From a virus (lineage: Duplodnaviria; Heunggongvirae; Uroviricota; Caudoviricetes): a DNA stretch of 36,000 nt. The position numbers and the translations under genes are program-made. The notes beneath the pieces are model-generated. The model was not told where the DNA came from. It did not search any database and was given only the letters and a program-made list of their open reading frames with translations. Where the stretch lies: positions 1-36,000 of IMG/VR virus record IMGVR_UViG_2534681759_000010. One strand, 5' to 3'. Below, one piece after another: positions 15,384 through 35,040 of this stretch (position 1 is the stretch's first letter; every line of letters begins with the position of its first letter).

Positions 15384-18300
15384 ATGCAATCAATCCAATT
15401 TAAGCGAACTAATGTAGCTGGCAAAAAGCCAACGCCGGAACAATTACAGGTCGGTGAGGTAGCAATCAACCTTAAAGACCATGTTATTTTTACCAAAGAC
15501 CGAGATCATGAAGTAGTTCAAATCTCTGTTTCTCCTGAAACTCACGCGGCACTAGAATCTAAAGTTGATGCTAACAAACAAGAACTGGATAGTACAATTG
15601 CAGTAAATGACCGCAATATTCACGCTAAAGTAGATGAAATTAAACAAACTACTGATGCAACCATCGCAGCAAATCACGCAGAAATTAACAATAAAGTTGA
15701 TGTAATTAAACGCGAAACCGACGCGACAATCGAGGCCAATAAAAATAAAGCTGCTTCCGATCTTGCTGGTGTTAAAGCTGAATTGTCGGATACCATCAAC
15801 GCTAATAAAAATGCGGCTGCTGTAGCAACTCAGGAACTGGACACCCGCATCAATAAAAAAGTTGATGATATTAAATCCCGTACCGATGCAACCATCGCAA
15901 GCAATTACAAAGCAATCAATGACAAAGTTGATTTGATTAAGGCAGAAACTGACCGCACTATCGCAGCAAATCACGCCTATGCGGAAAATCAGTTAACTGA
16001 CACCTACAATAACCTTACTGGTGTGATTGCGGCTAATAAGCAAGAGGCAGCGGATAACGTCGCAGCATTAACCCGTGATGTTGAAGCCAAAAATTCAGCA
16101 ATTCATAGCAAAGTTGACAATAACAAGTCTTACACTGATTCTGAACTGGCACGCTTAGAAAGCCGTATTGATGCAGCCGACGGATCGAGTGATGGCAAGT
16201 ACATCAAAAAACACGTAAACACTTATACTGATGGTTATTTGTTGTCTAAGACCGCAAACTATTTTGATGATCCGACCGCACGAAATCTTGATTATTTTGG
16301 TGCATTCCGCATGAATGACCTGGCGGGTCATATTGCAATGATCTTGCATGTTCCGCATCCATCTGGTGTTAATCATGCTCGTGGCTTTGAGTTCACTTAT
16401 GGGTCTAATCCGGTTCATACGGTAAGAACATACGGCTACGATGAATTGGGTAACTTGTCATATTCTCACCGCATGTATCATGAAGGCGATAAACCTACTC
16501 CGGCTGAAATTGGCGCATATTCGAAAGCAGAAATTGACCGACTGTTCCAGAAGACGCTTAATTTTGGGATCGAGGGTGGTTGGTTTAAACTAGGCACTTT
16601 GACAATGCCACAGCAACACGGTCGTAGTGCTAAGATCCGCTTAGTTGGTGGTAACGGTTATAACGTCGGGATGAATGGACAAGCCAATATTATCGAATTG
16701 GTGATTCGATGCGGCAACAATAGCCCGAAAGGTGTTGTATTCAATGCGTATTATACTATTTGGCATTATGAACAACATTTTTGCGCTATTCCAACCGATG
16801 GCGACAATTACGATCTTTACGCTTACTACGGTGCACATACAGGATTTGTTTTAGCAGAATATCAAGTTTCTTCCGGTGGTGTTTCTTTAAACCTGTTGGA
16901 TACTCCTGAATATCTGGGTGGTGAAAAACCTGTTGCAGATGAAATTTTTGATGCTCTTAACATTTCATCGTTCAATAACTTTAGCAACCGTGGAACGTTA
17001 AATTTTGCTGGAAACCATCAAGGCCAATACGACATTGAGCATATGAACGAACAACCGACAAATGCTAAAAAGATGTTGCGTCGCTTCCGTAGTTCTGCTC
17101 CTGCCACTATCTGGCACGAAAGTGTTGATGACCAAAATTATCGTCTTGCTACTGGATATACCGATGTAACCCAACAATTATTGCTTTCGGCTGTAACCGG
17201 TTTGCATATTCGTAGATTGACCATCGATGGTGGCTTGGGTTCCGGTTCTAATGCTGGTATTGATATTCGTCGAGGACCAAACGAAGCAAGCCATTTTAAT
17301 TTTATGGATTATCGCACTGGTCAAGATGTTCGTAATGGCTGGTTTGGTTTTGGTGATTTGACGACCAAAGATTTTATTTGGTGGAACGATAACGGTCAAA
17401 ACTCAATAAACTTGATCGAAAACGGTGAATTGCATATTACTGGCGGTAAAGGCCAGAAAATTGTAATGAATAGCGAAGTTGCATTATCTGAAAATGCTCG
17501 TTTGGCTGTCAGAGGCGGTAACTATGGTTTGATATTACGCAATGATGGTTCTAACTTCCATATTCTTACTACCGATTTAAAAGATTCTTTTGGTAATTGG
17601 AATAATCGCAGACCATTCAGCTATAATTTTGAGGACGGTGGACTATATTTAGGTGGCACTGAAACTGCTCGTTGTTTGCATCTGGGAATTGATGGTAGCA
17701 CTCGTCTCGAAGACAACCTTTTCTTTAAATCTGGTTCTCGTCAATCTATGGACTATATGGAACTCGTCCATTGGGGGGCAAGCAATACAGGTCGAAATAA
17801 CGTTTTAAGTCTTCGTGACTCAAAAGGATTTTTAGCCGAATTTGAACGCGTGGGGGGGACTAACGGCGTTAAAACCAGATTCTTTGGTGAAACCTTCACT
17901 GACGGTACATTATACCTAAATCAGATGAATAATAGCTCTGAACGATTCTCTATCAACAATTGGGGAAATTCAGAAGTTGGTCGCGCGGCAGTAATGGAAA
18001 TCGGCGATTCAAAAGGTTATCACTTCTATACTGAACGTAGGACAGATAACAGTTTGATGTTTGATGTTGCTGGCGCTTTTACTGTGCATGGATCTAGCGG
18101 GATCACTATCAAAAACTCTGATGGTGCTCGTCACATCTGGTTTAGAGATAACAGCGAATCGGAAAAGGCTGTTATTTGGGCGACCGATGAAGGTATTTTA
18201 CATATTCGCAATAACCACGGTGGACCATTTAGTCATCACTTTAAGGGTGCAATGATTCAACTGGAAGGGCGTGTTCCTTATGCCGCAGATCAAGGACTTA

Positions 18301-18914
18301 TCCGTGGTGAAGTTGATGGTGGTGCATATGTTGCATGGAGAGACCGCCCTGCTGGTTTGTTGGTTGACTGCCAGAAAAGTGTTGACAGTGCTCATGCTGT
18401 TTGGAAAGCGGTTGATTGGGGGCGTCAATATATCGCTGCTATGGACGTTCACTGTCCGGGTGATGGTAATAATACCGCAGCCGCTGTTCTTCATGTTCAG
18501 GCTGCCGATTATCAATTCCATGCAAGCGGAGAATTTCATGCCACTGGCAACGGAAACTTTAACGATGTGTATATTCGTTCTGACCGTCGCCTTAAAGACA
18601 ATATAGAAGATTATACCGGAAATGCGTTAAGTTTGATTGGTAAGCTGAAAGTGAAAACTTACGATAAAGTTAAATCTCTTAAGGACCGTGAAATTATAGG
18701 CCATGAGATTGGCATTATCGCACAGGATTTACAAGAAATATTACCAGAAGCTGTGAAATCTTCAAAAGTTGGCAATCTTGATAATCCAGACGATGTTCTG
18801 ACAATTTCTAACTCGGCAGTGAACGCGCTGTTAATTAAAGCGATTCAAGAAATGAGCGAAGAAAATAAAATCCTTCGTGAACGTCTTGCTGCAATTGAGG
18901 CTAAATTAGGGTAA
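15384..18914 (+). CDS. Tail fibre with N-terminal repeat region and C-terminal S74-type intramolecular chaperone domain
   Basis: About 19-aa repeats (KVDxIKxxTDATIAAN) in the first 250 residues; C-terminal NDVYIRSDRRLKDNIE...IIAQDLQEILPEAV resembles the self-cleaving chaperone domains of T5 pb1 and K1F endosialidase. Confidence 0.8.
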   Translation: MQSIQFKRTNVAGKKPTPEQLQVGEVAINLKDHVIFTKDRDHEVVQISVSPETHAALESKVDANKQELDSTIAVNDRNIHAKVDEIKQTTDATIAANHAEINNKVDVIKRETDATIEANKNKAASDLAGVKAELSDTINANKNAAAVATQELDTRINKKVDDIKSRTDATIASNYKAINDKVDLIKAETDRTIAANHAYAENQLTDTYNNLTGVIAANKQEAADNVAALTRDVEAKNSAIHSKVDNNKSYTDSELARLESRIDAADGSSDGKYIKKHVNTYTDGYLLSKTANYFDDPTARNLDYFGAFRMNDLAGHIAMILHVPHPSGVNHARGFEFTYGSNPVHTVRTYGYDELGNLSYSHRMYHEGDKPTPAEIGAYSKAEIDRLFQKTLNFGIEGGWFKLGTLTMPQQHGRSAKIRLVGGNGYNVGMNGQANIIELVIRCGNNSPKGVVFNAYYTIWHYEQHFCAIPTDGDNYDLYAYYGAHTGFVLAEYQVSSGGVSLNLLDTPEYLGGEKPVADEIFDALNISSFNNFSNRGTLNFAGNHQGQYDIEHMNEQPTNAKKMLRRFRSSAPATIWHESVDDQNYRLATGYTDVTQQLLLSAVTGLHIRRLTIDGGLGSGSNAGIDIRRGPNEASHFNFMDYRTGQDVRNGWFGFGDLTTKDFIWWNDNGQNSINLIENGELHITGGKGQKIVMNSEVALSENARLAVRGGNYGLILRNDGSNFHILTTDLKDSFGNWNNRRPFSYNFEDGGLYLGGTETARCLHLGIDGSTRLEDNLFFKSGSRQSMDYMELVHWGASNTGRNNVLSLRDSKGFLAEFERVGGTNGVKTRFFGETFTDGTLYLNQMNNSSERFSINNWGNSEVGRAAVMEIGDSKGYHFYTERRTDNSLMFDVAGAFTVHGSSGITIKNSDGARHIWFRDNSESEKAVIWATDEGILHIRNNHGGPFSHHFKGAMIQLEGRVPYAADQGLIRGEVDGGAYVAWRDRPAGLLVDCQKSVDSAHAVWKAVDWGRQYIAAMDVHCPGDGNNTAAAVLHVQAADYQFHASGEFHATGNGNFNDVYIRSDRRLKDNIEDYTGNALSLIGKLKVKTYDKVKSLKDREIIGHEIGIIAQDLQEILPEAVKSSKVGNLDNPDDVLTISNSAVNALLIKAIQEMSEENKILRERLAAIEAKLG

Positions 18915-23637: not shown

Positions 23638-24198
23638 ATGTTCAAATCCAAGAATATTAAAATCACAGATTTTACTCTTAAATCAAAACAGCCTTTCTTC
23701 AAGGCGCAATCTATTTCTGGTAAGTTCCAGCGTCGCTTTACTGGCATCCATTTTTACGAAGCAGAATTTACCGCGAATTACATGGCTCAGGATATTAACG
23801 AAGTAAAAGAATTTGTAGCACGTCACCTTTTTGGTCGTCCTTTCAGTGTGCCGCTGTCTTACTTTTCAAAATATACAGGTGATGTACGCCAGATGGTTAC
23901 GGCTGCTGCTGGTACTGCTCGCGGTGGGCGTAAGGTAAGACTCTCCAACTTCACCGGAACACTGAAAGCGGGAACTATCATCCAGTTTGAGAACCACAAG
24001 AAAATCTACACGATCACCGAAGACGTGAAATCAGGTGGTGAAATGAAACTCTTCCCTAACTTGCGTCAGAACGTCCTGGCGGGTGAGGTGATCAAGTATC
24101 AGAACGTAGAAGGTGAATTTGTTCTCAAAACTGAAAACATCGATTGGAAGATCGCCCAGATTGGCAAGATGAAATTCGAATTAGTGGAGAATGTATAA
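23638..24198 (+). CDS. Minor tail protein, lambda M-like
   Basis: Position after the tape measure; loose pattern similarity to gpM. Confidence 0.45.
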   Translation: MFKSKNIKITDFTLKSKQPFFKAQSISGKFQRRFTGIHFYEAEFTANYMAQDINEVKEFVARHLFGRPFSVPLSYFSKYTGDVRQMVTAAAGTARGGRKVRLSNFTGTLKAGTIIQFENHKKIYTITEDVKSGGEMKLFPNLRQNVLAGEVIKYQNVEGEFVLKTENIDWKIAQIGKMKFELVENV

Positions 24199-24851
24199 TG
24201 GCAACTATTCAGGAATCATTCAGCAAACTATGCACTAATCTGGACTTCATCGAGGTCTACAACGACCAGACAGGTCAGAACGTGTCTAGATTGACGCTAC
24301 CGCAGCTTTTCTCCACTGGATCGATGTTTCACATTATCGAAGTGATAACAGCGTCAGGGGACGTTCTACGGCTTACTGATGGGTATTTCGATTTGGACTA
24401 TAACGGATTTACGTATCTCGCAACGGGTGATTTTCTTCAAATCTCATCGAATACCGAAGAGAAGGAGATCAACAACAACGGGATTAACGTAACCGTTTCT
24501 AACGTTCGCGAAGAATACATTACTCTCATTCGAAACAAGCAATTCGATAAATCCGATGTGAAAATCGAAATGGTTTTCCTTAACCCCAACACGGGCAAGG
24601 TTGAGACAACTTACCCTGTTTTCCGTGGGGTAGTCGATTCCATCGGTATTAACATCGAACATGAAGATGATGAGTGTAAAAACGAATCAGAATTTCAGCT
24701 TAATAGTATCTGGGAAGTTCTAGATAAAAACGCTCGTAGTCATGCCTCCGATGGTATCCACCGATCCTATGCCGGAAACGAGAACGATCTATTCTTCTCC
24801 CGTGCCGGGAAGTGGAATAGCGAAAGCCGCTGGCATTCATCGAAGAAATAA
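24198..24851 (+). CDS. Minor tail protein at the lambda L position
   Basis: Internal ATG (track start 24144 + 54); gene order. Confidence 0.45.
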   Translation: MATIQESFSKLCTNLDFIEVYNDQTGQNVSRLTLPQLFSTGSMFHIIEVITASGDVLRLTDGYFDLDYNGFTYLATGDFLQISSNTEEKEINNNGINVTVSNVREEYITLIRNKQFDKSDVKIEMVFLNPNTGKVETTYPVFRGVVDSIGINIEHEDDECKNESEFQLNSIWEVLDKNARSHASDGIHRSYAGNENDLFFSRAGKWNSESRWHSSKK

Positions 24852-24897: not shown

Positions 24898-25317
24898 ATG
24901 CTAAAAACTAGGCTTATCACCGATTACATCAATTCTTTAATAGGTCAGGAGTTCGTTCAAGGCGAGAATGATTGCAATATAATTGCATGTAAGATCATCG
25001 ATATTCTCGCTGGTACTGACCTATATAATTCTCTTTATAAAAAATATTCAACTAAAGAAGAAGGCTTGAAAATCTGCAAAGAATTAAGCGGATACACAAA
25101 CATCCTTCAACCAATTAAGAAACATTTCAAATTAGTCACTGATGATTTACAGGACGGCGACTTACTGGTCACAGCCCACAAATTAGGGAACCGCAAATAT
25201 TATTCCGTAGTTCCTCATTATTCCGGTTATGGCCTCGTTGAAGAAGATGGTATCTGGATGACCATTCCTGTTTCAGACATTGACTATGAACAAGTTTATA
25301 GATTCGGGGGTGAATAA
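24898..25317 (+). CDS. Tail-tip assembly protein with NlpC/P60-like Cys motif (GENDCN), lambda K-like
   Basis: GGAGG RBS; internal ATG (track start 24742 + 156); gene order. Confidence 0.45.
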   Translation: MLKTRLITDYINSLIGQEFVQGENDCNIIACKIIDILAGTDLYNSLYKKYSTKEEGLKICKELSGYTNILQPIKKHFKLVTDDLQDGDLLVTAHKLGNRKYYSVVPHYSGYGLVEEDGIWMTIPVSDIDYEQVYRFGGE

Positions 25318-28300
25318 TGGGATTTGAAGTATTGGTAGGCGCGGTTATTGCTGGTGCGTCTGCTGGGATGGCGGCAGCCGCAACATTTTCTGTTATGACC
25401 GCAGTCGCTATCGGTATGGCTGCTGGTGCAATGACCTTGATCGCTTCCACTGTAGGCGCACCAAAAACACCTAAAGTACAAAGCCCAGATAATGCGGTGA
25501 CACTAGGAACATCAAACGATCCTAAGACAGTGTTACCCGTTCTTTTCGGTACTACCCGCACGGGTGCAATCTGCGTTTATAAAGCAATTTCACAGCGTGA
25601 AAACAACAAACTGGTACAAATTTTTGCTATTTCCGAAGGTGAGATCGATCACTTTAAAGCACTGCACATCGATAATAAAAACGTTCTCATTAGCCAGAAT
25701 ATGACAATTCGTGATGGTATTCTCGATAAAGGAAACATTAAAGACGAATACCGCAAAGTGTTAGAAGTCGAGTTTCGCACTGGTAAAAATCCTAACACTG
25801 CATTGGATCTGGCTAAACATCATTTGGGCGCAGATTGGGATGATCGGTATCAGGGTAACGGCATTGCGACTATGTGTATTGTTTTACGTCGTGATGACAA
25901 ATCTCTTGCTGCTGGTGTTGATATTCTCCAGCCTAATAGCCAGGTAGCGGTCGATGTTATGGGCTTAAAAATCCGTAACCTCGAAACCAATGCTATTGAG
26001 GCTAGCACTAACGGAGTGGATCAGATTTTCCACTACCTAACAAATGAAAAATATGGCTTATCCGTACCAATTGAAAACATTAACGTTGATTCATTCCTGA
26101 AAGTACGTAAACAAGTACGCCAGATGGATTTGCATTCAAACGGTGCATGTGATCCGAACGCCAGCTTTAAAGAGAACTTGACCAGTCTTATGCAGACTTT
26201 CGGCGGGGTGATGTTCGAATCCTTTGGACGTATTACGCTGAAACTGGATGCTCCTGATATTGTTAAGCACACCTTCAATGAAGACAATATTATGATGGGG
26301 AAAGTATCACTGAAAACAGGTGGCACTAACGGTTATTTCAATACCATTAATGCGATGTATCAAGAACCATCAATCGACTATTCAGAGCAAATGCTACGTT
26401 ATCCGGCTGATGCTGAAAACGATGCTACTGTTCGCGCAGATGGTCGAATTATTGCTAAGGATGTAGAATATCGTTTCGTTAAGTCTAAAGCCCAGATTGA
26501 TAAACTCGCGAGCATTGAGCGAAATAAATCTCGTATCACTCAGGTTATCAGCTTTATGACTACTGACGCATTCACTGCCGAAGTTTGGGACGTTATCAGC
26601 GTAACCTATGATGAATTAAAACTGAATAATTCACTTTGGCGCATTACTGCAATTGATCGTTCTATTGATTCTGGTATTGCTGGGATGATGACTATCACCG
26701 CTACAGAATATAATTCTCAGGTTTATACTGACCTGAACTATGCGGCGACTCCAGACAATAGACCTACTGGTTTACCGGATTCAATGACAGTACAGAAACC
26801 GACTAATTTCAGAATTAAGGCAACTGGTGAGACAATCCACGGTAAAAACGTAACTTTGACATGGGATGCACCGGAAGATTTCAACCGCTACGGTTTCCAG
26901 ATTGATTATCGTGTGAGTGGATCACCTAACTGGATTAAGCTGGGACAGACTTCACAGCAAATTTTCAATATCAATGCACTGGCAAAAGATCGCTCCTACG
27001 ATTACCGCGTTTGTGCTTTCGGTATTATTGCTCGTTCCGAATGGGTGGAACTGGTTAACCAGAATCCAGAAGTTACCTATGAATTGCCTACGCCAGTGAT
27101 CCGCATCAAAAATCAGGGTAGCACACCAGGAACTTTTGAAGGCAATGATCTGATTATCGAATGGGAAAATCAGCAAGCCTTAGATGTGGTTATCAACGGT
27201 GAAACTAACAAGTTTAGTGACCTGTTTGAAGCCTACATTATCAAGGTAACTAACAAGGCTGGTAAGTCTATTCAGTACCGTACCCGCGATCCTGAATCAT
27301 GGACTTATACGCTTGATATGAACCAGTTTAACGGCCTTTCCCGTGAATTGACGGTAGAAGTATCAGTCAAGGGCTATAACAACTCAGAGAGCGCCCCAGC
27401 GCGTTTAGTGGCTATTAACCCACAGCATAAGCCAATGAAAGGTTTTAGTGCGCGTGGTGGCTTTAATACTGCGTTTGTTAGCTGGGCGGATGACGTAGAA
27501 CATGACTATGCAGGGTCAATCATCCAGTATGCAACCGATAACACTTTCTCAGATGCAAGGGCAGTGACTACCAATAGCGTCAGTCATACTTCCTTTGATT
27601 TGGCTGACGGTGATTATTATATCCGTGGTGCTCACTATGATATTTTCGGTATGGATGATGCTGTTTGGTCTGAACCGTATTTCATGCAAATGAAATCTAC
27701 CATTAGCTGGGACGATCAGGACAAAGAAGCACTGGAAGACCTGATTGGTTTACAAGACCGCTTAGATGAAACTATCGCGGATGCTATTGCTCAAGCTGGC
27801 GCTAATGCCGATGCTAAAATTGATGCAATGCATAAGCAAATCACTACCGAAACAGGGCAGACGGTCCAAGCCTCAGCCGATACTCTCAAGAGTCTGATTG
27901 CTACCAGCGAGCAAGCTAGCTCCACTAAGATTGATCAGGTTAAAGCTGAACTGAAAGGCGATATCACCAAAGAAGTTAGTGCATCTGCTACTACCCTGAA
28001 ACAAGCAATTGCTACCAGTGAGGCAGCAAGCGCAAGTAAGATTGATCAAGTTAGGGTAGAAATGGATGGCAAGATTGCTGGTGTGAATCAGGAAGCAGAT
28101 GTAAAAATCGATGCTTTGAAGGGAACCATTAACAGCAAATATAATCTGGCGGTTAATGCAGATGGTCGCGTGGCTGGTATTCATATGAGCGCAACCAACG
28201 ATCCGGCGCAACCGACAAGAATCATCTTTACGGCTGATAAAATCGCGGTAGCTCCACAAGACGGATCGGAAGTATGTCCGTTTGGCATCGAAGATAACAA

Positions 28301-29093
28301 AGTTTATCTCGATAATGCGATGATTCGTAATGGGGCGATCGGAACAGCCCAGATCAACGATGCTAGTATCACCACGGCTAAGATCGGCACAGCCCAGATT
28401 AACGGCGCTCACATCCAACACGCACAGATCGGAACAGGTCATATTATTGATGGCTCTATCGATAATGCTAAAATTGGTAACTATATCCAGTCTTATAACT
28501 GGAATGGTAACGATGGATGGTATATCGGCAAAGATGGCACTTGTCATTTTAGACACGCTAATATTCGTGGTCATTTGGTGGCTGATTCCGGCGAAATGAA
28601 CAACGTAACGATTAATTCAAGTTGCCGCATTTTGGGTATGCTTGATGCTAATCAGGTGCGTGGTGACTTCGTGAAAGCTATTGGTCGTCGATTCCCACAT
28701 TGGGACGAAAACCCATCATTGGGCTATCCCGGTTATCCGCAAGGTACAATCACTGTTCGAATTGAAGATGATCACCCGTTTGATCGTCAGATTATCGTTC
28801 CGGCTATTAGCTTTGGTGGTCTTAATGCGCGTGAAGGCTCGAATAACAATACTTACTATGATAACTGTCGCTTGATTGTTCGCAAGAACGGTGCTGAATT
28901 ATATAACCGTGCATATGGTAGACAGACTGGATTGTATAGTGCTGTTATTGATATGCCAGCCGGACACGGACCAGTTACGCTAACTTTTGAAGTAAGTTCA
29001 AGCGCAATCAACAACTGGACTCCCAGCACATGGATCAGCGATCTTTCTGTAATTGTTACTAAGAAAGCCGCTACGGGTATTTCTGTTTCTTAA
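25317..29093 (+). CDS. Central tail fibre / host-specificity protein: lambda I C-terminal domain fused to lambda J, with a lambda-J-like C-terminal receptor-binding domain
   Basis: N-terminal hydrophobic Gly/Ala segment and KTVLPVLFGTTRTG resemble the gpI C-terminus (NVLPVLYGEMRVG); IFAISEGEIDHF resembles J VIDAISEGPIEG; C-terminus DDHPFDRQIIVPAISF...VIDMPAGHGPVTLTFEV...ISDLSVIVTKKAATGISVS closely parallels lambda J DDHPFDRQIVVLPLTF...IVDMPAGRGNVILTFTL...VMVIKKQALGISVV. Confidence 0.85.
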   Translation: MGFEVLVGAVIAGASAGMAAAATFSVMTAVAIGMAAGAMTLIASTVGAPKTPKVQSPDNAVTLGTSNDPKTVLPVLFGTTRTGAICVYKAISQRENNKLVQIFAISEGEIDHFKALHIDNKNVLISQNMTIRDGILDKGNIKDEYRKVLEVEFRTGKNPNTALDLAKHHLGADWDDRYQGNGIATMCIVLRRDDKSLAAGVDILQPNSQVAVDVMGLKIRNLETNAIEASTNGVDQIFHYLTNEKYGLSVPIENINVDSFLKVRKQVRQMDLHSNGACDPNASFKENLTSLMQTFGGVMFESFGRITLKLDAPDIVKHTFNEDNIMMGKVSLKTGGTNGYFNTINAMYQEPSIDYSEQMLRYPADAENDATVRADGRIIAKDVEYRFVKSKAQIDKLASIERNKSRITQVISFMTTDAFTAEVWDVISVTYDELKLNNSLWRITAIDRSIDSGIAGMMTITATEYNSQVYTDLNYAATPDNRPTGLPDSMTVQKPTNFRIKATGETIHGKNVTLTWDAPEDFNRYGFQIDYRVSGSPNWIKLGQTSQQIFNINALAKDRSYDYRVCAFGIIARSEWVELVNQNPEVTYELPTPVIRIKNQGSTPGTFEGNDLIIEWENQQALDVVINGETNKFSDLFEAYIIKVTNKAGKSIQYRTRDPESWTYTLDMNQFNGLSRELTVEVSVKGYNNSESAPARLVAINPQHKPMKGFSARGGFNTAFVSWADDVEHDYAGSIIQYATDNTFSDARAVTTNSVSHTSFDLADGDYYIRGAHYDIFGMDDAVWSEPYFMQMKSTISWDDQDKEALEDLIGLQDRLDETIADAIAQAGANADAKIDAMHKQITTETGQTVQASADTLKSLIATSEQASSTKIDQVKAELKGDITKEVSASATTLKQAIATSEAASASKIDQVRVEMDGKIAGVNQEADVKIDALKGTINSKYNLAVNADGRVAGIHMSATNDPAQPTRIIFTADKIAVAPQDGSEVCPFGIEDNKVYLDNAMIRNGAIGTAQINDASITTAKIGTAQINGAHIQHAQIGTGHIIDGSIDNAKIGNYIQSYNWNGNDGWYIGKDGTCHFRHANIRGHLVADSGEMNNVTINSSCRILGMLDANQVRGDFVKAIGRRFPHWDENPSLGYPGYPQGTITVRIEDDHPFDRQIIVPAISFGGLNAREGSNNNTYYDNCRLIVRKNGAELYNRAYGRQTGLYSAVIDMPAGHGPVTLTFEVSSSAINNWTPSTWISDLSVIVTKKAATGISVS

Positions 29094-29111
29094 AATTTAA
29101 TTCTAATAATT

Positions 29112-29152
29112 AATCCCGCTTAATTCTTTGTGGTTAGGCGGGATTATTTTTA
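29112..29152 (+). terminator. Rho-independent terminator after the central fibre gene
   Basis: AATCCCGC...GCGGGATT stem followed by ATTTTT. Confidence 0.55.
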
Positions 29153-29197: not shown

Positions 29198-29476
29198 ATG
29201 ACTGAAATTATATATGGCGGTATCGGTGTTATCGCCTTAATTTGTGGTGGGCTTTGGAGACTCCACCGAAATCAATTAGCCACAGAAAATAGATTGTCGA
29301 AATTAGAATCCAGCGACGCATTGTTAAACCAGAAGTTTGAGACGATGCAGAATAACCACGATCAGATCGCCGAGAGGGTTTATCGCATGGAACAAACACT
29401 ACACGGTATAGAAAAGAAAGTGGTTGCGATGGACGCTAAATTTGACCAAGTTCTCGACATACTCAAACAAAAATAA
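29198..29476 (+). CDS. Lysis-associated membrane protein: one N-terminal TM helix plus coiled coil; i-spanin- or holin-like
   Basis: IIYGGIGVIALICGGLW TM segment followed by a predicted coiled coil; lies upstream of the endolysin. Confidence 0.45.
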   Translation: MTEIIYGGIGVIALICGGLWRLHRNQLATENRLSKLESSDALLNQKFETMQNNHDQIAERVYRMEQTLHGIEKKVVAMDAKFDQVLDILKQK

Positions 29477-29495
29477 TAATAAAGGGGTGAATATA

Positions 29496-29666
29496 TGAAG
29501 AATAAACTTAAGAAATATTTTGGTTATCTCTTGATTATCGCCCTCACTTATAACGTAGCAATTAGACCTCTGCTTACGTCCTTTGGGCTTGAACTCCCGG
29601 CTATGACCGTGGATGAACAATTGCTAAGGACACTGGCGGGGGTCTTTTCGTTATTAGGGGGCTAAC
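29496..29666 (+). CDS. Small membrane protein, 56 aa; holin candidate
   Basis: Below the track cut-off; MKNKLKKYFGYLLIIALTYNVAIRPLLTSFGLELPAMTV... has a hydrophobic segment; its stop abuts the start of the next gene. Confidence 0.35.
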
Positions 29667-30350
29667 ATGGCAACCAGTACCAATAAACGAAACGCTCTAA
29701 GGACAAAGAAAGCGTTACGCCAATGGACTGATAAAGCAACCGATACATTCGAAAGGGCGATAGGGGAAGGGGCGATCTTTGCTGCTCGTGCACTCCAGAA
29801 GAAGATTAACAAGAATGTTGATAGACCTACTCGCTGGACTCAGCAAGCTGTAGGTAATACCAACTACAAGAACCGATCAGGGACGAGACACCAAATCTTC
29901 ATCAAGGGCGCAAGGGATAAGGATAAGAAGATCGGCAGTCAGGACGACTATCTGAAACACTATTTCGATGGGGGCAAAATCAATAAGCTAGTTCCAATCG
30001 CCAACGGTAAGGTCTTAGACGCTCACGGGAACATTAAGGCCATCAAAGGCGGTAAGATGATGCGTAACCTCGAAAACGGCAACTTCATCAAGGTAGAGAA
30101 CAAGGAAGGGACTTTTATCATGAAGAAGTACAAGCCTAAGAAATCCCGAACCAAACGCGCTAGGAATGGATCGGCGGTGGCAAAACGTCGCTTAGAGAAA
30201 CGCATACAGAAACAGAGCAAGCGAATTGTTGCCGTTAAATCGGATAAAATTTCTACTCGTTATTCGACGCTAGGATCGTGGGAAAGCAACGAGGAAATGA
30301 TGCTTAAGAACATTAATAAGCACATTAAATCGCGCATGAAATACGTTTAA
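29667..30350 (+). CDS. Hypothetical very basic protein, 227 aa (K/R-rich)
   Basis: Intact ORF within the lysis-region operon; no family recognised. Confidence 0.5.
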   Translation: MATSTNKRNALRTKKALRQWTDKATDTFERAIGEGAIFAARALQKKINKNVDRPTRWTQQAVGNTNYKNRSGTRHQIFIKGARDKDKKIGSQDDYLKHYFDGGKINKLVPIANGKVLDAHGNIKAIKGGKMMRNLENGNFIKVENKEGTFIMKKYKPKKSRTKRARNGSAVAKRRLEKRIQKQSKRIVAVKSDKISTRYSTLGSWESNEEMMLKNINKHIKSRMKYV

Positions 30351-33310: not shown

Positions 33311-34990
33311 TTAAATTCCAAATTCCTGTAATGGACCTGGTATTTCCTCTTCTGGTTTCCAGTTCTTATCTGTCAGCATGTCTAAACATGGATGCAAAAC
33401 AAGCCCGTTACTTTCCAGAATCTGTCTATCATTGATAGTTTTCAAATCAACGAAGATCCGGCCTTTCCTCGGTCCTCTTGAATTTTCTATTACAACTCTC
33501 TGGGTCTTGCCATCGATGTATTCCAGTACAAACAAGTTTTTGTACTTGTCAATCCTGCTACACCCGATCCGTTTTAGAGCTTGCTTAATCTTAAACCGGA
33601 CCTTAATGCGATCCTCGTTGTAAACATCTTCTATATCAAATTCTGCGAGCTTCTCCCAGCCTTGAGAGTCAACAGAATACATTTCCTCTTCTGCCATCTT
33701 AATTTGATTGTAGAGTGTTTCACGCTCGCTATTGAGGGTAGTAATCTGATCGGCTAGCTCCTTCGTTGCTCCTGTCATAGCAGAAAGGGTAATCAGGTTA
33801 TCAATCTTGCGTGATATTTCATCAATCTGTACTTTCAAAGCCGGAACCGGATTAGCCTTATCCTCAGCAATCCAGATTTTATCAGCCAGCAATTGCAATA
33901 CAGCTTTCTCTAATTGATCACCTCGAAAACTCCAGTTTGTATGCACACATGCAATACGACTAGAGCGCATTGCATCGCATGAATAACGATATTGGTTAGG
34001 ACGTTTGTTAGTTCCTTTCACCTTAACCATAGCGGAACCGCAATGTTCACATTTCAATAGACCAACACCACTAAGCAAGGGAATAGGTTTAACTTCTTCC
34101 TTGTCTCCATAGTTACATGCTCTAACACCAATGCTTTTCTTAAGGTGATAAAACTCAGCGTCATCTAGCACACGAGGATAATAATCCTTTAACTCATACT
34201 TAACGCCATCTACAGAGATTTCCTTGATACCAATCAAAGCGCGGGTATGGAACAACCTTTCAATCATTGCCCGTGACCAGTTTGAATGCCTCTTGTGACT
34301 TGCGGCTGGTGGTGGTGTGTATGTCGCGTTAAGGTGATCCAGTATCTCGGCGGTTGACCGTCCATTCCTGCGTAATTCCACAACTTCCTGAACAATAGGG
34401 AAGAAGACCGGATGAGGAAGCACATAACCAGATGTGGTATCAGTCCACCACATATTCTTTCCAATTTCCTCGATTGCAACAGCCGGATTTTGTGGATTTT
34501 CTTGATGAGCTTTAATCTTAATCAATGCGCTTGAGTTAGTACGATTGCGCTTAGTCTGACTTTCCTCGTTAGCTCTCGCAAACAACATGACACTCAACAG
34601 CAAATCAATAGGATTGGCATTAACCGATTCCTTGCTATAGACCTTACCATCCATGCCAGTTACGATAGTTATTCCCCTACGGATAATCGAGAGAAATAGC
34701 TCTTGTGCTTCAATGATGGATTGGCGAGAGATACGGTCTAAGTTTTCCACAACCAGCCAGCTACCAACCGGAACGGATCGACCAATCTCATCCAGAAAGC
34801 GAGATAGTGCACCTGTTCTACTGTTAGCCCCTTTGAATGCAGATACACCAAAATCCTGATAGGAAGTAACCAGTTCAAGGTCATATTTTGCGGCTATCTC
34901 TGCGGCTGTTCTCTTTTGGCGTTCATAAGAACTACCATCTGCTTGCTTCATGGAAGAGAAGCGAATATACGAATACAGTTTAGTTTTCAT
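33311..34990 (-). CDS. Large serine recombinase (serine integrase or invertase-like)
   Basis: N-terminal resolvase catalytic domain (MKTKLYSYIRFSSMKQADGSSYERQ); long C-terminal extension with Cys cluster (CEHCGS...C...C) and coiled coil, typical of large serine recombinases. Start at the internal ATG (track start is a TTG). Confidence 0.8.
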   Translation of the reverse strand: MKTKLYSYIRFSSMKQADGSSYERQKRTAAEIAAKYDLELVTSYQDFGVSAFKGANSRTGALSRFLDEIGRSVPVGSWLVVENLDRISRQSIIEAQELFLSIIRRGITIVTGMDGKVYSKESVNANPIDLLLSVMLFARANEESQTKRNRTNSSALIKIKAHQENPQNPAVAIEEIGKNMWWTDTTSGYVLPHPVFFPIVQEVVELRRNGRSTAEILDHLNATYTPPPAASHKRHSNWSRAMIERLFHTRALIGIKEISVDGVKYELKDYYPRVLDDAEFYHLKKSIGVRACNYGDKEEVKPIPLLSGVGLLKCEHCGSAMVKVKGTNKRPNQYRYSCDAMRSSRIACVHTNWSFRGDQLEKAVLQLLADKIWIAEDKANPVPALKVQIDEISRKIDNLITLSAMTGATKELADQITTLNSERETLYNQIKMAEEEMYSVDSQGWEKLAEFDIEDVYNEDRIKVRFKIKQALKRIGCSRIDKYKNLFVLEYIDGKTQRVVIENSRGPRKGRIFVDLKTINDRQILESNGLVLHPCLDMLTDKNWKPEEEIPGPLQEFGI

Positions 34991-34999
34991 ACCATTTCC

Positions 35000-35040
35000 A
35001 AACAAAAACGCCCCTACCGCGTATTATAACGATAGGGGCA
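35000..35040 (-). terminator. Hairpin terminator immediately upstream of the recombinase start
   Basis: GCCCCTA...TAGGGGC stem with a 16-nt loop containing TATTATAAC, followed on the minus strand by GTTTTTGTTT. Confidence 0.4.

Follow-up and report, generated by a model that had tools for sequence, protein, structure and literature searches.

We conclude that the fibre gene of the window (the whole stretch of 36,000 nucleotides analysed) probably codes for a trimeric protein that forms the tail-tip hub and the central fibre in a siphovirus-type E. coli prophage of ~35 kb, and in which a T5/GTA-like hub is combined with an N-terminus corresponding to the virion-resident C-terminal half of lambda gpI and a receptor-binding domain of the lambda J type. 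The architecture was assigned mostly by homology, and the mechanism was inferred from the solved tips of lambda, T5 and RcGTA. From the N- to the C-terminus, the chain would run through two hydrophobic helices, a plug/beta-strand segment, the hub domains HDII to HDIV, three FN3 domains, a helical segment, a beta-rich straight fibre, a joint and the receptor-binding domain (Table 1).

The ORF of 1258 aa described in the first-pass annotation is real. It is a single frame with an ATG start; the RefSeq annotation of related E. coli genomes agrees on both, and the counterpart there is named 'phage tail tip protein'. The start codon overlaps the stop of the gene upstream (TAATG) and is preceded by a Shine-Dalgarno-like run, GGGGGTGA.

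Table 1. Features of the fibre gene and its surroundings (positions in the window; aa, residues of the fibre protein unless a protein length is given).
Feature	Positions	Strand	Basis
Tape measure protein, 809 aa	21158..23587	+	Inferred from position, size, coiled-coil-rich sequence and synteny with annotated tape measure genes of related phages
Distal tail protein, 186 aa	23638..24198	+	PHROG 1302 'distal tail protein', E 1.5e-16
Separate hub protein, 217 aa	24198..24851	+	Pfam PF09931 Phage_phiJL001_Gp84_N, 26.4 bits vs cutoff 26
DUF6950 protein, 139 aa; position of RcGTA g14 and lambda K	24898..25317	+	Pfam PF22262, E 4e-12; start as in RefSeq
Whole gene, tail-tip hub and central fibre protein, 1258 aa	25317..29093 (stop codon included)	+	ORF list and E. 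coli annotation
Ala/Gly-rich hydrophobic stretch, aa 1-48; counterpart of gpI H1/H2	25317..25460	+	Hydropathy and gpI alignment
gpI plug and beta-strand counterpart, aa 49-105	25461..25631	+	Motif PKTPKVQSPDN...VLPVLFGTTRTG; gpI 158-221 alignment
Baseplate-hub domains, HDII to HDIV type, aa ~97-480	25605..26756	+	Family profile, Pfam, Foldseek
Three fibronectin-III-like beta domains, aa ~490-795	26784..27701	+	Pfam fn3, profile, AF2, Foldseek
Long alpha-helical (coiled-coil-like) segment of allele-variable length, aa ~802-918	27720..28070	+	AF2 model
Central straight fibre (Phage_Tail_Tip / DUF1983) including 15-aa repeats, aa 931-1067	28107..28517	+	Pfam PF09327
Conserved joint (…NNVTINSSCRILGMLDANQVRGDFV), aa 1068-1119	28518..28673	+	Alignments with lambda J 947-998 and DCP80
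Lambda-J-type receptor-binding domain, aa 1120-1258	28674..29090	+	Pfam PF12421 and PDB matches
Terminator-like hairpin, then T-run	29111..29146	+	Consensus scan only; just 3' of the fibre gene, 15-pair stem then TTTTTAT

The N-terminus had been proposed to match the hydrophobic C-terminal part of lambda gpI, and this was confirmed. BLASTP aligned residues 8-105 with gpI 120-221 (27% identity, E 5e-5), and a tblastn search of all six frames of the whole window with gpI gave a sole match at 25389-25637 (E 4.6e-4). When the PDB was searched with a family profile of 16 sequences, the gpI chain 8iyk_I was matched at E 1.1e-5 (profile 8-101, gpI 117-221), and hhalign of the N-terminus with gpI gave 93.6% probability (E 2e-7). 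In gpI, the matched segment contains two hydrophobic helices, the plug and the strand with PVLYG. The Ala/Gly-rich stretch, whose partner in the alignments is gpI ~117 to 157, is long enough for two membrane helices and is the only part of the whole protein where 19-residue Kyte-Doolittle hydropathy exceeds 1.6. In the AF2 monomer model, pLDDT was below 30 over residues 1-62 and reached 86-90 in the strands 79-91 and 98-107. A motif common to the fibre protein and gpI, PV(L/V)(F/Y)G..R.G, also opens the alignment with T5 pb3, which begins at PVVYG (pb3 residue 262), just past the tip of the pb3 plug hairpin (residues 233-236).

Low-complexity sequence rich in Ala/Gly/Val makes up about half of the aligned stretch, the match to PHROG 32 (the gpI family) is weak (E 2e-3), and an exhaustive single-sequence search of 1.84 billion proteins returned no gpI-like small protein at library-level significance. 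These observations would suit a generic hydrophobic anchor, analogous but non-homologous to gpI, with a convergent or compositional similarity. We consider this unlikely, however, since gpI scored 31.3 bits against the N-terminal profile while the best of 3000 composition-matched shuffles scored 12.4, and 19.6 against 6.3 bits after removal of the hydrophobic stretch. The profile and hhalign matches and the motif shared with pb3 speak against it as well, and the N-terminus and gpI match the same region of PHROG 31. The shuffles score far below gpI, and the resemblance is real and more than composition. In these alignments, gpI is represented by its C-terminal half only, from about residue 117; nothing in the window corresponds to the ubiquitin-like N-domain of gpI (residues 14-97, Pfam Lambda_tail_I).

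The continuation into J-like sequence after the N-terminus also held, but for the middle of the protein at profile level only: BLASTP against lambda J found no match across this part, and hhalign aligned residues 222-1042 with J 267-1035 (99.8% probability, E 1e-27). The family profile matched T5 pb3 at E 4e-62 versus E 2e-42 for gpJ, and Foldseek of the AF2 model gave 1e-32 for pb3, 2e-22 for gpJ and 1e-13 for RcGTA (6tba_8A, target-normalised TM-score 0.63). The hub matches 8hqz_A and 7zhj_b both stood at E 1e-32. For 7zqp_b, the open cone of T5, the rmsd was 4.3 A over 477 Foldseek alignment columns. Pfam Phage-tail_3 scored 21.9 bits at residues 285-447, slightly below its 23-bit cutoff. 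In the following region, Pfam fn3 was matched weakly at residues 506-575, the profile search matched titin and other FN3 chains, and the AF2 model folded into three beta-sandwich blocks for which Foldseek returned three-domain FN3 fragments. The helical segment was modelled by AF2 with low confidence (mean pLDDT 59; helices at residues 23-83 and 90-139 of the C-terminal model); a fold-switch-like motif was matched three times within it, and sister alleles of 1216-1226 aa differ in its length, as judged by eye. With NCBIfam lambda_TipJ, whose cutoff is 1950 bits, the score was 211 bits and the match was confined to residues 1070-1258, and the gpJ N-terminus alone scored just 0.5-2.3 bits against the profile. 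By these sequence and model comparisons, the body is nearer to T5 pb3 than to gpJ, and the fibre protein is not a lambda TipJ.

The first-pass annotation had further read the ORF as two lambda genes fused, and this reading was not upheld. The gpI-like and gpJ-like segments do share one ORF in the lambda order, and the C-terminus of lambda I followed by the N-terminus of J can be laid by eye along residues ~70-120. Nevertheless, it is highly improbable that true lambda-type I and J genes fused recently in a lambdoid prophage, for instance by loss of the I stop codon, given the lambda_TipJ result, the closer match of the body to pb3 and the near-zero score of the gpJ N-terminus. In addition, the gpI ubiquitin-like domain, gpM, gpL and gpK could not be traced within the window, the neighbouring genes are not lambda M-L-K, and no separate I-like and J-like genes differing by a stop codon were found among close relatives in a sequence-cluster search. 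The gpI-like hydrophobic N-terminus is common to distant relatives of 650-1600 aa, which come from Vibrio phages and metagenomes, so the joined gpI-like/hub form is the norm of the family; since these relatives are just 20-45% identical, the joined state is old. A single T5 pb3 chain has already been described as equivalent to gpL together with gpI and gpJ's N-terminal part (PMC10721106; PMC13243795).

The gene order, from the tape measure gene through the distal tail protein, hub (PF09931) and DUF6950 genes to the fibre gene, is RcGTA-like. Vibrio phages have the identical order from tape measure through DUF6950 to fibre gene, and the order in Pelagibacter phage HTVC202P resembles it but lacks the small gene. 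The 217-aa hub protein, which matched PHROG 2048 'tail protein' (E 3e-27), presumably supplies the HDI or gpL-equivalent part. The distal tail protein gave a weak match to the Pfam pb9 B-domain, and the DUF6950 protein had no detectable similarity to gpK or any PDB chain.

At the other end of the protein, the straight fibre was matched by Pfam PF09327 (E 5.5e-18) and by the T1 J-like chain 9l9p_S (E 1e-17), and a tandem repeat with a 45-bp unit lies at 28337-28437. The last ~150 residues had been said to track the lambda J C-terminus closely. Lambda J 947-1131 is matched by residues 1068-1258 (BLASTP, residues 1073-1257 with J 952-1131, 41% identity, E 3e-34) and Pfam PF12421 Ig_GpJ_C covered 1123-1258 (E 2e-35), so with the alignment to lambda I and J that had been suggested, both ends of the protein align as claimed. 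The closest PDB chain was 9wca_J (A8 gpJ, E 5e-50), followed by the lambda J chains 8xcj and 8iyk (E about 1e-34); identity across the receptor-binding domain was 43% to lambda, 53% to A8 and 55% to VT1-Sakai J. The domain consists of a conserved core and variable segments, in which it departs from both lambda and A8, and the first variable segment of the window allele carries an insertion of 7-8 residues.

The joint is common to lambdoid J proteins and to relatives bearing other tips. Up to the joint, identity to sister allele P0063 is 95%, against 61% in the receptor domain; for P0082 the values are 84% in the body and 77% in the receptor domain. The tips of Salmonella relatives, P0121 and DCP80 are unrelated past the joint, DCP80 being alignable up to residue 1119. 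These comparisons indicate that the receptor domain is a swappable cassette exchanged at the conserved joint. The junction in engineered gpJ chimeras was at lambda J residue 964 (PMC11338833), which falls in the lambda stretch aligned with the joint.

An active host-range determinant would be expected to show allelic turnover mainly in its receptor domain, as is seen here, and this weighs against a decaying, functionless remnant of a cryptic prophage, a reading to which we give little credence. The fibre gene has so far been seen only as prophage, with 50,697 phage records giving no match at the nucleotide level, and an IS1 element lies within it in one related genome, as might be expected of a remnant; but the 1258-codon ORF is intact in 51 of the 55 complete E. 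coli genomes carrying the gene and in many draft assemblies, and complete-looking head, tail and lysis modules with an integrase gene surround it. One cluster at 90% identity has 3211 member sequences.

An outer-membrane porin had been predicted as the receptor, with LamB as the model. The receptor of lambda is LamB, and phage 434 tail fibre swapped into lambda leads to OmpC binding. For A8 gpJ and for 1A2, the receptor is OmpC (PMC11338833). A trimeric outer-membrane porin is thus a plausible receptor from family membership, whereas LamB is not specifically indicated. Although the domain shares its family with that of lambda J, LamB as in lambda is a doubtful candidate: identity is 43% to lambda versus 53% to the OmpC-binding A8 (E 1e-34 versus 5e-50), the differences are concentrated in the variable segments, and OmpC use is known for members of this family. 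OmpC would be somewhat more likely than LamB. Because identity to domains with known receptors is at most 53% and the 7-8 residue insertion is present, a receptor other than LamB, OmpC or OmpF could also apply.

As long as the virion is at rest, the three subunits would have their N-terminal segments in the lumen of the cone; threaded between the hub domains, these segments would block the tube and retain the tape measure protein by its C-terminus. Docking of the receptor-binding trimer on a trimeric outer-membrane porin would be relayed up the fibre so that the FN3 strings peel off and the cone is opened. Once free, the hydrophobic N-termini may insert into the outer membrane, and the tape measure protein followed by the DNA would leave via the opened tube. 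The lumenal position and the membrane insertion are transferred by analogy from lambda, T5 and RcGTA. In lambda, gpI 101-223 comprises H1, H2, the plug and the strands threading the gpJ hub domains, and its helices vanish on opening, for which outer-membrane insertion was proposed (PMC11101478; PMC10721106; PMC12617516). The N-terminal iris/penetration domain of the RcGTA megatron has a matching role (PMC7296036; PMC10276861), and the T5 pb3 plug refolds into membrane-anchoring hairpins (PMC10038345).

Compared with lambda gpI and gpJ (PDB 8IYK, 8XCG, 8XCJ), the N-terminal 105 aa correspond to gpI ~117-221 with H1/H2, plug and threading strands. After them come the hub domains, the FN3 string, the helical segment, the straight fibre and the receptor-binding domain, arranged as in gpJ, and the homology of the last of these is clear (41-43% identity, PF12421). 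Unlike here, lambda uses two polypeptides, gpI has the ubiquitin-like N-domain, gpK has JAB and NlpC/P60 domains (none detectable in the neighbouring gene), and the hub partner is Phage_tail_L instead of the phiJL001/GTA family; the body is invisible to BLAST against gpJ and falls short of the TipJ model, and the allele-variable receptor-binding segments differ from those of lambda. T5 pb3 (PDB 7ZHJ, 7ZQP) and DT57C (8HQZ) are the best sequence-profile and fold match for residues ~70-680, and pb3 likewise has its plug/PVVYG segment in one chain with the hub and FN3 domains. However, pb3 has its own HDI/gpL-equivalent N-terminal ~260 aa, presumably encoded here by a separate gene, its plug is a beta-hairpin instead of two hydrophobic helices, and the remaining fibre (pb4) and the receptor binder (pb5) are separate proteins. 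RcGTA and roseophage R4C (hub-plus-megatron, PDB 6TBA) also distribute the hub over two polypeptides with PF09931 upstream, have a small gene between the hub gene and the large protein, and start the latter with a hydrophobic 'iris/penetration' region, for which sealing of the channel and later insertion into the outer membrane were proposed. In contrast to the fibre protein, the megatron binds side fibres and has no lambda-type straight fibre or receptor-binding domain; the DUF6950 protein has no demonstrated peptidase relationship, and the hub protein of the window is missing the four-cysteine Fe-S site. Among solved relatives, the A8 gpJ chimera (PDB 9WCA, 9WCB; Brodel et al. 2024) is nearest to the C-terminal 190 aa; it too is a lambda-family domain grafted at the same conserved joint. 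That graft was engineered onto lambda gpJ and its OmpC binding was shown experimentally, whereas the present one arose naturally on a non-lambda hub, and its receptor is a predicted one.

In conclusion, the gene is a mosaic of a T5/GTA-like hub chassis and a receptor cassette of the lambdoid J family, which combines known parts and is no new kind of machine.

The product of the tail-tip gene is a mosaic that combines tail hub and central fibre, in which a gpI-like segment, a hub body and a lambda-J-type receptor-binding domain follow one another on one chain. The first-pass annotation had called a 1258-aa open reading frame here, and this was borne out on the plus strand with an ATG start (see table). 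The ATG shares bases with the upstream gene's stop (TAATG), and a purine-rich, Shine-Dalgarno-like run precedes it. In related E. coli chromosomes the same gene is labelled 'phage tail tip protein' in RefSeq. The earlier observation was confirmed, since similarity to lambda I and J held at both ends of the protein on formal alignment, and its interpretation, a fusion of two lambda genes, was right in part.

Features of the tail-tip region and of related genes in the window
Feature	Coordinates	Strand	Length	Remarks
Fibre gene	15384..18914	+	1176 aa	between head genes and tail tube gene
Distal tail protein				upstream of tail-tip gene; PHROG 1302
Separate hub protein	24198..24851	+	217 aa	PF09931 Phage_phiJL001_Gp84_N; PHROG 2048
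DUF6950 protein	24898..25317	+	139 aa	slot of lambda gpK and RcGTA g14 peptidase
Tail-tip hub/central fibre gene	25317..29093	+	1258 aa	ATG start
Helical fibre segment	27720..28070			aa ~802-918 of the tail-tip protein
Antisense ORF	27873..28574	-	233 aa	ATG start; within tail-tip gene; probably spurious
Tandem repeat	28337..28437		45 bp, 2.2 copies	straight-fibre part
Terminator-like hairpin	29111-29146			downstream of tail-tip gene
Coiled-coil protein and second protein	29198..30350	+	92 aa and 227 aa	directly downstream of tail-tip gene
Serine recombinase	33311..35005			in prophage

The claim that the N-terminus matches the C-terminal part of lambda gpI was upheld by BLASTP, profile search, hhalign and a shuffle control, which agreed. 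In BLASTP, aa 8-105 aligned with gpI 120-221 (27% identity, E 5e-5), and a six-frame tblastn of gpI against the window matched a single place (E 4.6e-4), with an aligned part of gpI 121-223 only. A family alignment of 16 sequences was built from the window protein, the matches of an exhaustive search and phage homologues. Its profile, searched against PDB, recovered gpI (8iyk_I) at E 1.1e-5 with profile 8-101 corresponding to gpI 117-221, and hhalign of gpI against the family profile gave a probability of 93.6% (E 2e-7). By hydropathy, aa 1-48 are the sole strongly hydrophobic stretch of the protein, and composition was weighed as the cause of the similarity. The N-terminal profile scored 31.3 bits on gpI versus at most 12.4 bits in 3000 shuffles of gpI 101-223, and in the same test without the hydrophobic part gpI scored 19.6 bits versus 6.3 bits. 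Composition is excluded by this control, and a non-hydrophobic signature is common to both regions, PK.TP(K/R)(V/I)Q..DN ... VLPVL(F/Y)G..R.G.

The shared part is the C-terminal, virion-resident part of gpI (two hydrophobic helices, plug and PVLYG strands); the ubiquitin-like N-terminal domain of gpI (PF06805, gpI 14-97) was not found in the 1258-aa protein. Searched on the first 130 or the first 500 aa, PF06805 Lambda_tail_I gave no match even at E 10. It models only that ubiquitin-like domain, and Pfam is therefore blind to the resemblance. When aa 1-115 were searched with phmmer against 1.84 billion proteins, no gpI-like small protein was found, and nearly all of the 15 matches lay at the N-termini of 650-1600-aa proteins; the gpI link relies on the pairwise, profile and shuffle tests. 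In the solved lambda tips, the virion-resident half of gpI is made up of two helices (H1 and H2), a plug (residues 159-175) and strands that run between the hub domains of gpJ and grip the C-terminus of the tape measure; upon LamB binding the gpI helices leave the density, and their entry into the outer membrane has been proposed (PMC11101478; PMC10721106; PMC12617516).

The J-like continuation that had been read after this segment stood by profile and failed by BLASTP outside the C-terminus. The family profile matched lambda gpJ at E 2e-42 and hhalign gave a probability of 99.8%, but BLASTP against gpJ detected no similarity outside the C-terminus of the protein. The strongest profile match was the T5 baseplate hub protein pb3 (7zhj_b, E 4e-62), with profile 67-676 corresponding to pb3 262-944, and matches of about 1e-40 were obtained for the F2 pyocin fibre, a J-like tail tip protein (gp24) and the phage T1 tail-tip fibre protein. 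Residues 1-800 were modelled with AF2 at a mean pLDDT of 77.9 (below 30 for aa 1-62). The best Foldseek matches of the model were DT57C and T5 pb3 (E 1e-32), followed by JBD30, lambda gpJ (2e-22), T1, Chi and RcGTA 6tba_8A (1e-13), and the open T5 cone 7zqp_b was superposed on it with an rmsd of 4.3 A over 477 alignment columns. PF13550 Phage-tail_3, the hub core of J-like proteins, scored 20.0-21.9 bits at aa 285-447 versus a gathering score of 23, and a PF13550 match is precomputed for relatives at 78-86% identity. The hub fold is strongly supported by profile and structure comparison alike. Both methods recovered hub domains HDII to HDIV of the pb3 type followed by FN3 domains. HDI and the N-terminal ~260 aa of pb3 were not found on the chain, as the alignment begins at pb3 residue 262, at a PVVYG motif shortly past the point where the plug hairpin of pb3 has its tip (residues 233-236). 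Since the alignment starts just past this hairpin, the gpI-like segment occupies the place of the pb3 plug.

These results do not agree with a fusion of two lambda genes. NCBIfam NF049904 lambda_TipJ scored 211 bits versus a curated cutoff of 1950, with the match limited to aa 1070-1258 (model positions 975-1163), and the genes upstream are not lambda M-L-K; they encode a distal tail protein, the 217-aa hub protein and the DUF6950 protein. A neat seam between an I end and a J start, as seen by eye, had no independent support: the gpJ N-terminus scored only 0.5-2.3 bits against the profile across it, which is not significant. The joined state is the norm of this tail-tip family, and the I-like N-terminus reflects the known plasticity in dividing hub domains among genes. 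In the structural literature, gpL and gpI, taken with gpJ's N-terminal part, are the counterpart of the single chain pb3 (PMC10721106), and one to three polypeptides may encode a hub subunit (PMC13243795). Positions 132-298 of PHROG 31 'central tail fiber J' are a gpI-like region matched by both gpI and the query N-terminus, which suggests that joined forms are already present among catalogued phages. When phages were searched by tblastn with the C-terminal half of gpI for annotated I-J fusions, most of the matches listed were separate I genes, and the 'Phage tail fibers' gene of phage Fraca, considered as a candidate fusion, proved to be a separate 200-aa I gene.

The third claim, that the last ~150 residues resemble the lambda J C-terminus, was supported. 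PF12421 Ig_GpJ_C matched aa 1123-1258 over its full model length (122.2 bits vs gathering 26.2, E 2e-35), PF09327 Phage_Tail_Tip (DUF1983) matched aa 931-1027 (65.5 bits vs gathering 22, E 5.5e-18), and phmmer against PDB aligned aa 1068-1258 with A8 gpJ (9wca; E 5e-50), an engineered graft on lambda gpJ, and with lambda J (~1e-34). Over the receptor-binding domain (aa 1120-1258) identity was 43% to lambda J, 53% to A8 gpJ, 55% to VT1-Sakai J and 60-77% to sister prophage alleles. The alignment revealed a conserved core, with DDHPFDRQ, DMPAG and KK..GIS among its motifs, and several variable segments, in the first of which the window allele has an insertion of 7-8 residues.

The receptor-binding domain behaves as a cassette. 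The related allele P0063 is 95% identical to the window protein up to ...GDFVK and 61% beyond, and a second allele, P0082, is 84% identical before this point and 77% after it. The Salmonella, P0121 (a further relative) and DCP80 (Escherichia phage) proteins are collinear to aa ~1107-1119 and unrelated beyond. The joint, NNVTIN..C.I.G.L.A..V.GDFV, aligns with the lambda J stretch holding residue 964, the graft point for engineered chimeras (PMC11338833). No recent lambdoid donor of the domain was found in 5426 complete E. coli genomes; among them it was at least 90% identical in 18 genomes only, and matches annotated as lambdoid gpJ were at most 76% identical and of partial length.

In the fibre, the AF2 model of aa 780-1258 was of low confidence and served for secondary structure only. 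The helical segment differs in length among sister alleles of 1216-1226 aa. It contains 3 matches to a fold-switch motif versus 0.49 expected, and at least 3 occurred in 57 of 5000 shuffles; the regular expression is our own rendering of a published pyocin motif (PMC12874032), and the count serves as a lead only. The tandem repeat encodes 15-aa repeats (IGTAQINDASITTAK-like).

An outer-membrane porin had been predicted as the receptor from the likeness to lambda. Within this domain family, lambda uses LamB and the phage 434 tail fibre uses OmpC, A8 and 1A2 have OmpC as receptor (PMC11338833), and according to the lambda paper gpJ can come to use OmpF via point mutations. From this known use of LamB, OmpC and OmpF, a trimeric porin would be a reasonable starting expectation for a domain that is trimeric and has the lambda-J fold, and the receptor of the cassette is probably a porin. 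LamB in particular would have to be predicted from 43% identity to the lambda domain, with divergent variable segments, and the nearest characterised relative uses OmpC, not LamB. At 43-55% identity, with variable segments this divergent, the sequences do not justify assignment of a specific receptor. A wider reading, which we consider rather unlikely, would combine an ancestral hub-chain gpI half with a lambda-type cassette working on a T5/GTA-like hub, perhaps with a new receptor; in it, lambda gene I may be a later split that gained the ubiquitin-like domain, and the receptor might be an outer-membrane protein other than LamB, OmpC or OmpF.

The order of hub, small protein and megatron (the large tip protein) in RcGTA and R4C is also the layout of the prophage tip genes. 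As in RcGTA, a separate hub of the Gp84_N family lies upstream of the large protein, although PF09931 passed only marginally (26.4 bits vs cutoff 26); PHROG 2048 matched at E 3e-27, and no match to the 217-aa protein was found in PDB. The N-terminus of the megatron is a hydrophobic iris/penetration domain (PMC7296036; PMC10276861), to which aa 1-48 would correspond, with a putative location in the channel. A four-cysteine Fe-S cluster has been described for lambda gpL and for the RcGTA and R4C hub proteins (PMC10721106; PMC10276861); the 217-aa hub protein has two cysteines only, so that such a cluster is impossible. Between hub and large protein, RcGTA has g14, an NlpC/P60 cell-wall peptidase, whereas the prophage has the DUF6950 protein, which contains a 'GENDCN' motif. 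An NlpC/P60 or gpK-like peptidase was considered for this protein and had no support, no similarity to gpK or any PDB chain being found. The Vibrio phage relatives have the same tip gene order, and Pelagibacter phage HTVC202P has a similar one without the small gene.

Downstream of the tail-tip gene, the 227-aa protein has a weak 'minor tail protein' PHROG match. In other siphoviruses this position carries receptor-binding accessories or superinfection-exclusion genes. The 1176-aa fibre gene is unusual in its position. A trimerisation domain of the T4 gp34 type was identified in its product, along with an S74 intramolecular chaperone domain at the C-terminus and matches to gp37-like 'long tail fiber distal subunit' PHROGs. 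The product is probably a side fibre that would add a second, primary receptor specificity.

From the homologies, which are what the analysis establishes, we infer a mechanism in which each functional step is carried over from lambda, T5 and RcGTA. The tail-tip protein, as a trimer, and the separate hub protein, in three copies, would form a closed cone beneath the distal tail protein ring, with the N-terminal segments plugging the lumen and gripping the C-terminus of the tape measure. Receptor binding by the C-terminal trimer would be relayed along the straight fibre and also the helical segment (aa ~802-918, low-confidence model); the FN3 strings would then peel off, with the hub domains swinging open and insertion of the hydrophobic N-termini into the outer membrane, and the tape measure protein and then DNA would leave via the opened tube. 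The tail-tip case opens no new mechanism.

Window bases 1 to ~360 are core E. coli DNA (present in 5323 of 5426 complete genomes), and the rest is a prophage of ~35 kb with terminase, portal, capsid, large fibre, tail tube, tape measure, tip and lysis genes. In one complete genome a related prophage adjoins ycdY and the csg locus. The tail-tip gene was detected in 55 of the 5426 genomes, every copy being chromosomal, and one 90%-identity cluster has 3211 member sequences; homologues from Salmonella and Providencia are ~73% and ~72% identical, respectively. In E. coli 14EC017 (NZ_CP024134.1, match H45) an IS1A element splits the homologous gene, so some copies, at least, of this prophage are decaying. 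A nucleotide search of 50,697 phage records gave no match to the window, and no cultured close relative was found. The nearest phage protein, from DCP80, is 39% identical over aa 29-1119, without the receptor-binding domain, followed by those of Vibrio phages (~100 kb) and a Pelagibacter phage, all at ~22% identity. The DCP80 record (PQ671644.1, record 8763-31256; 141 kb) is classed as Straboviridae/Gaprivervirus with T4-like motA and endonuclease VII, and its homologue of a siphovirus-type tail-tip protein adjoins a gene of tape-measure size; the record is either anomalous in taxonomy or assembly or represents an unusual hybrid.

With the gpI-like segment, sequence evidence now backs a view drawn from structures, in which the part of gpI resident in the virion belongs functionally to the hub chain, as in pb3 and the GTA megatron. 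A lambda-J receptor cassette on a structurally different hub shows its portability in nature, and the natural joint falls in the same conserved stretch that engineers chose as graft point, which helps the design of host-range chimeras and the prediction of prophage host range. For annotation, the value lies in a fairly common, uncharacterised E. coli prophage family, found in ~1% of the complete genomes as well as many isolates from pigs; most of its tail genes carry the label 'hypothetical'.
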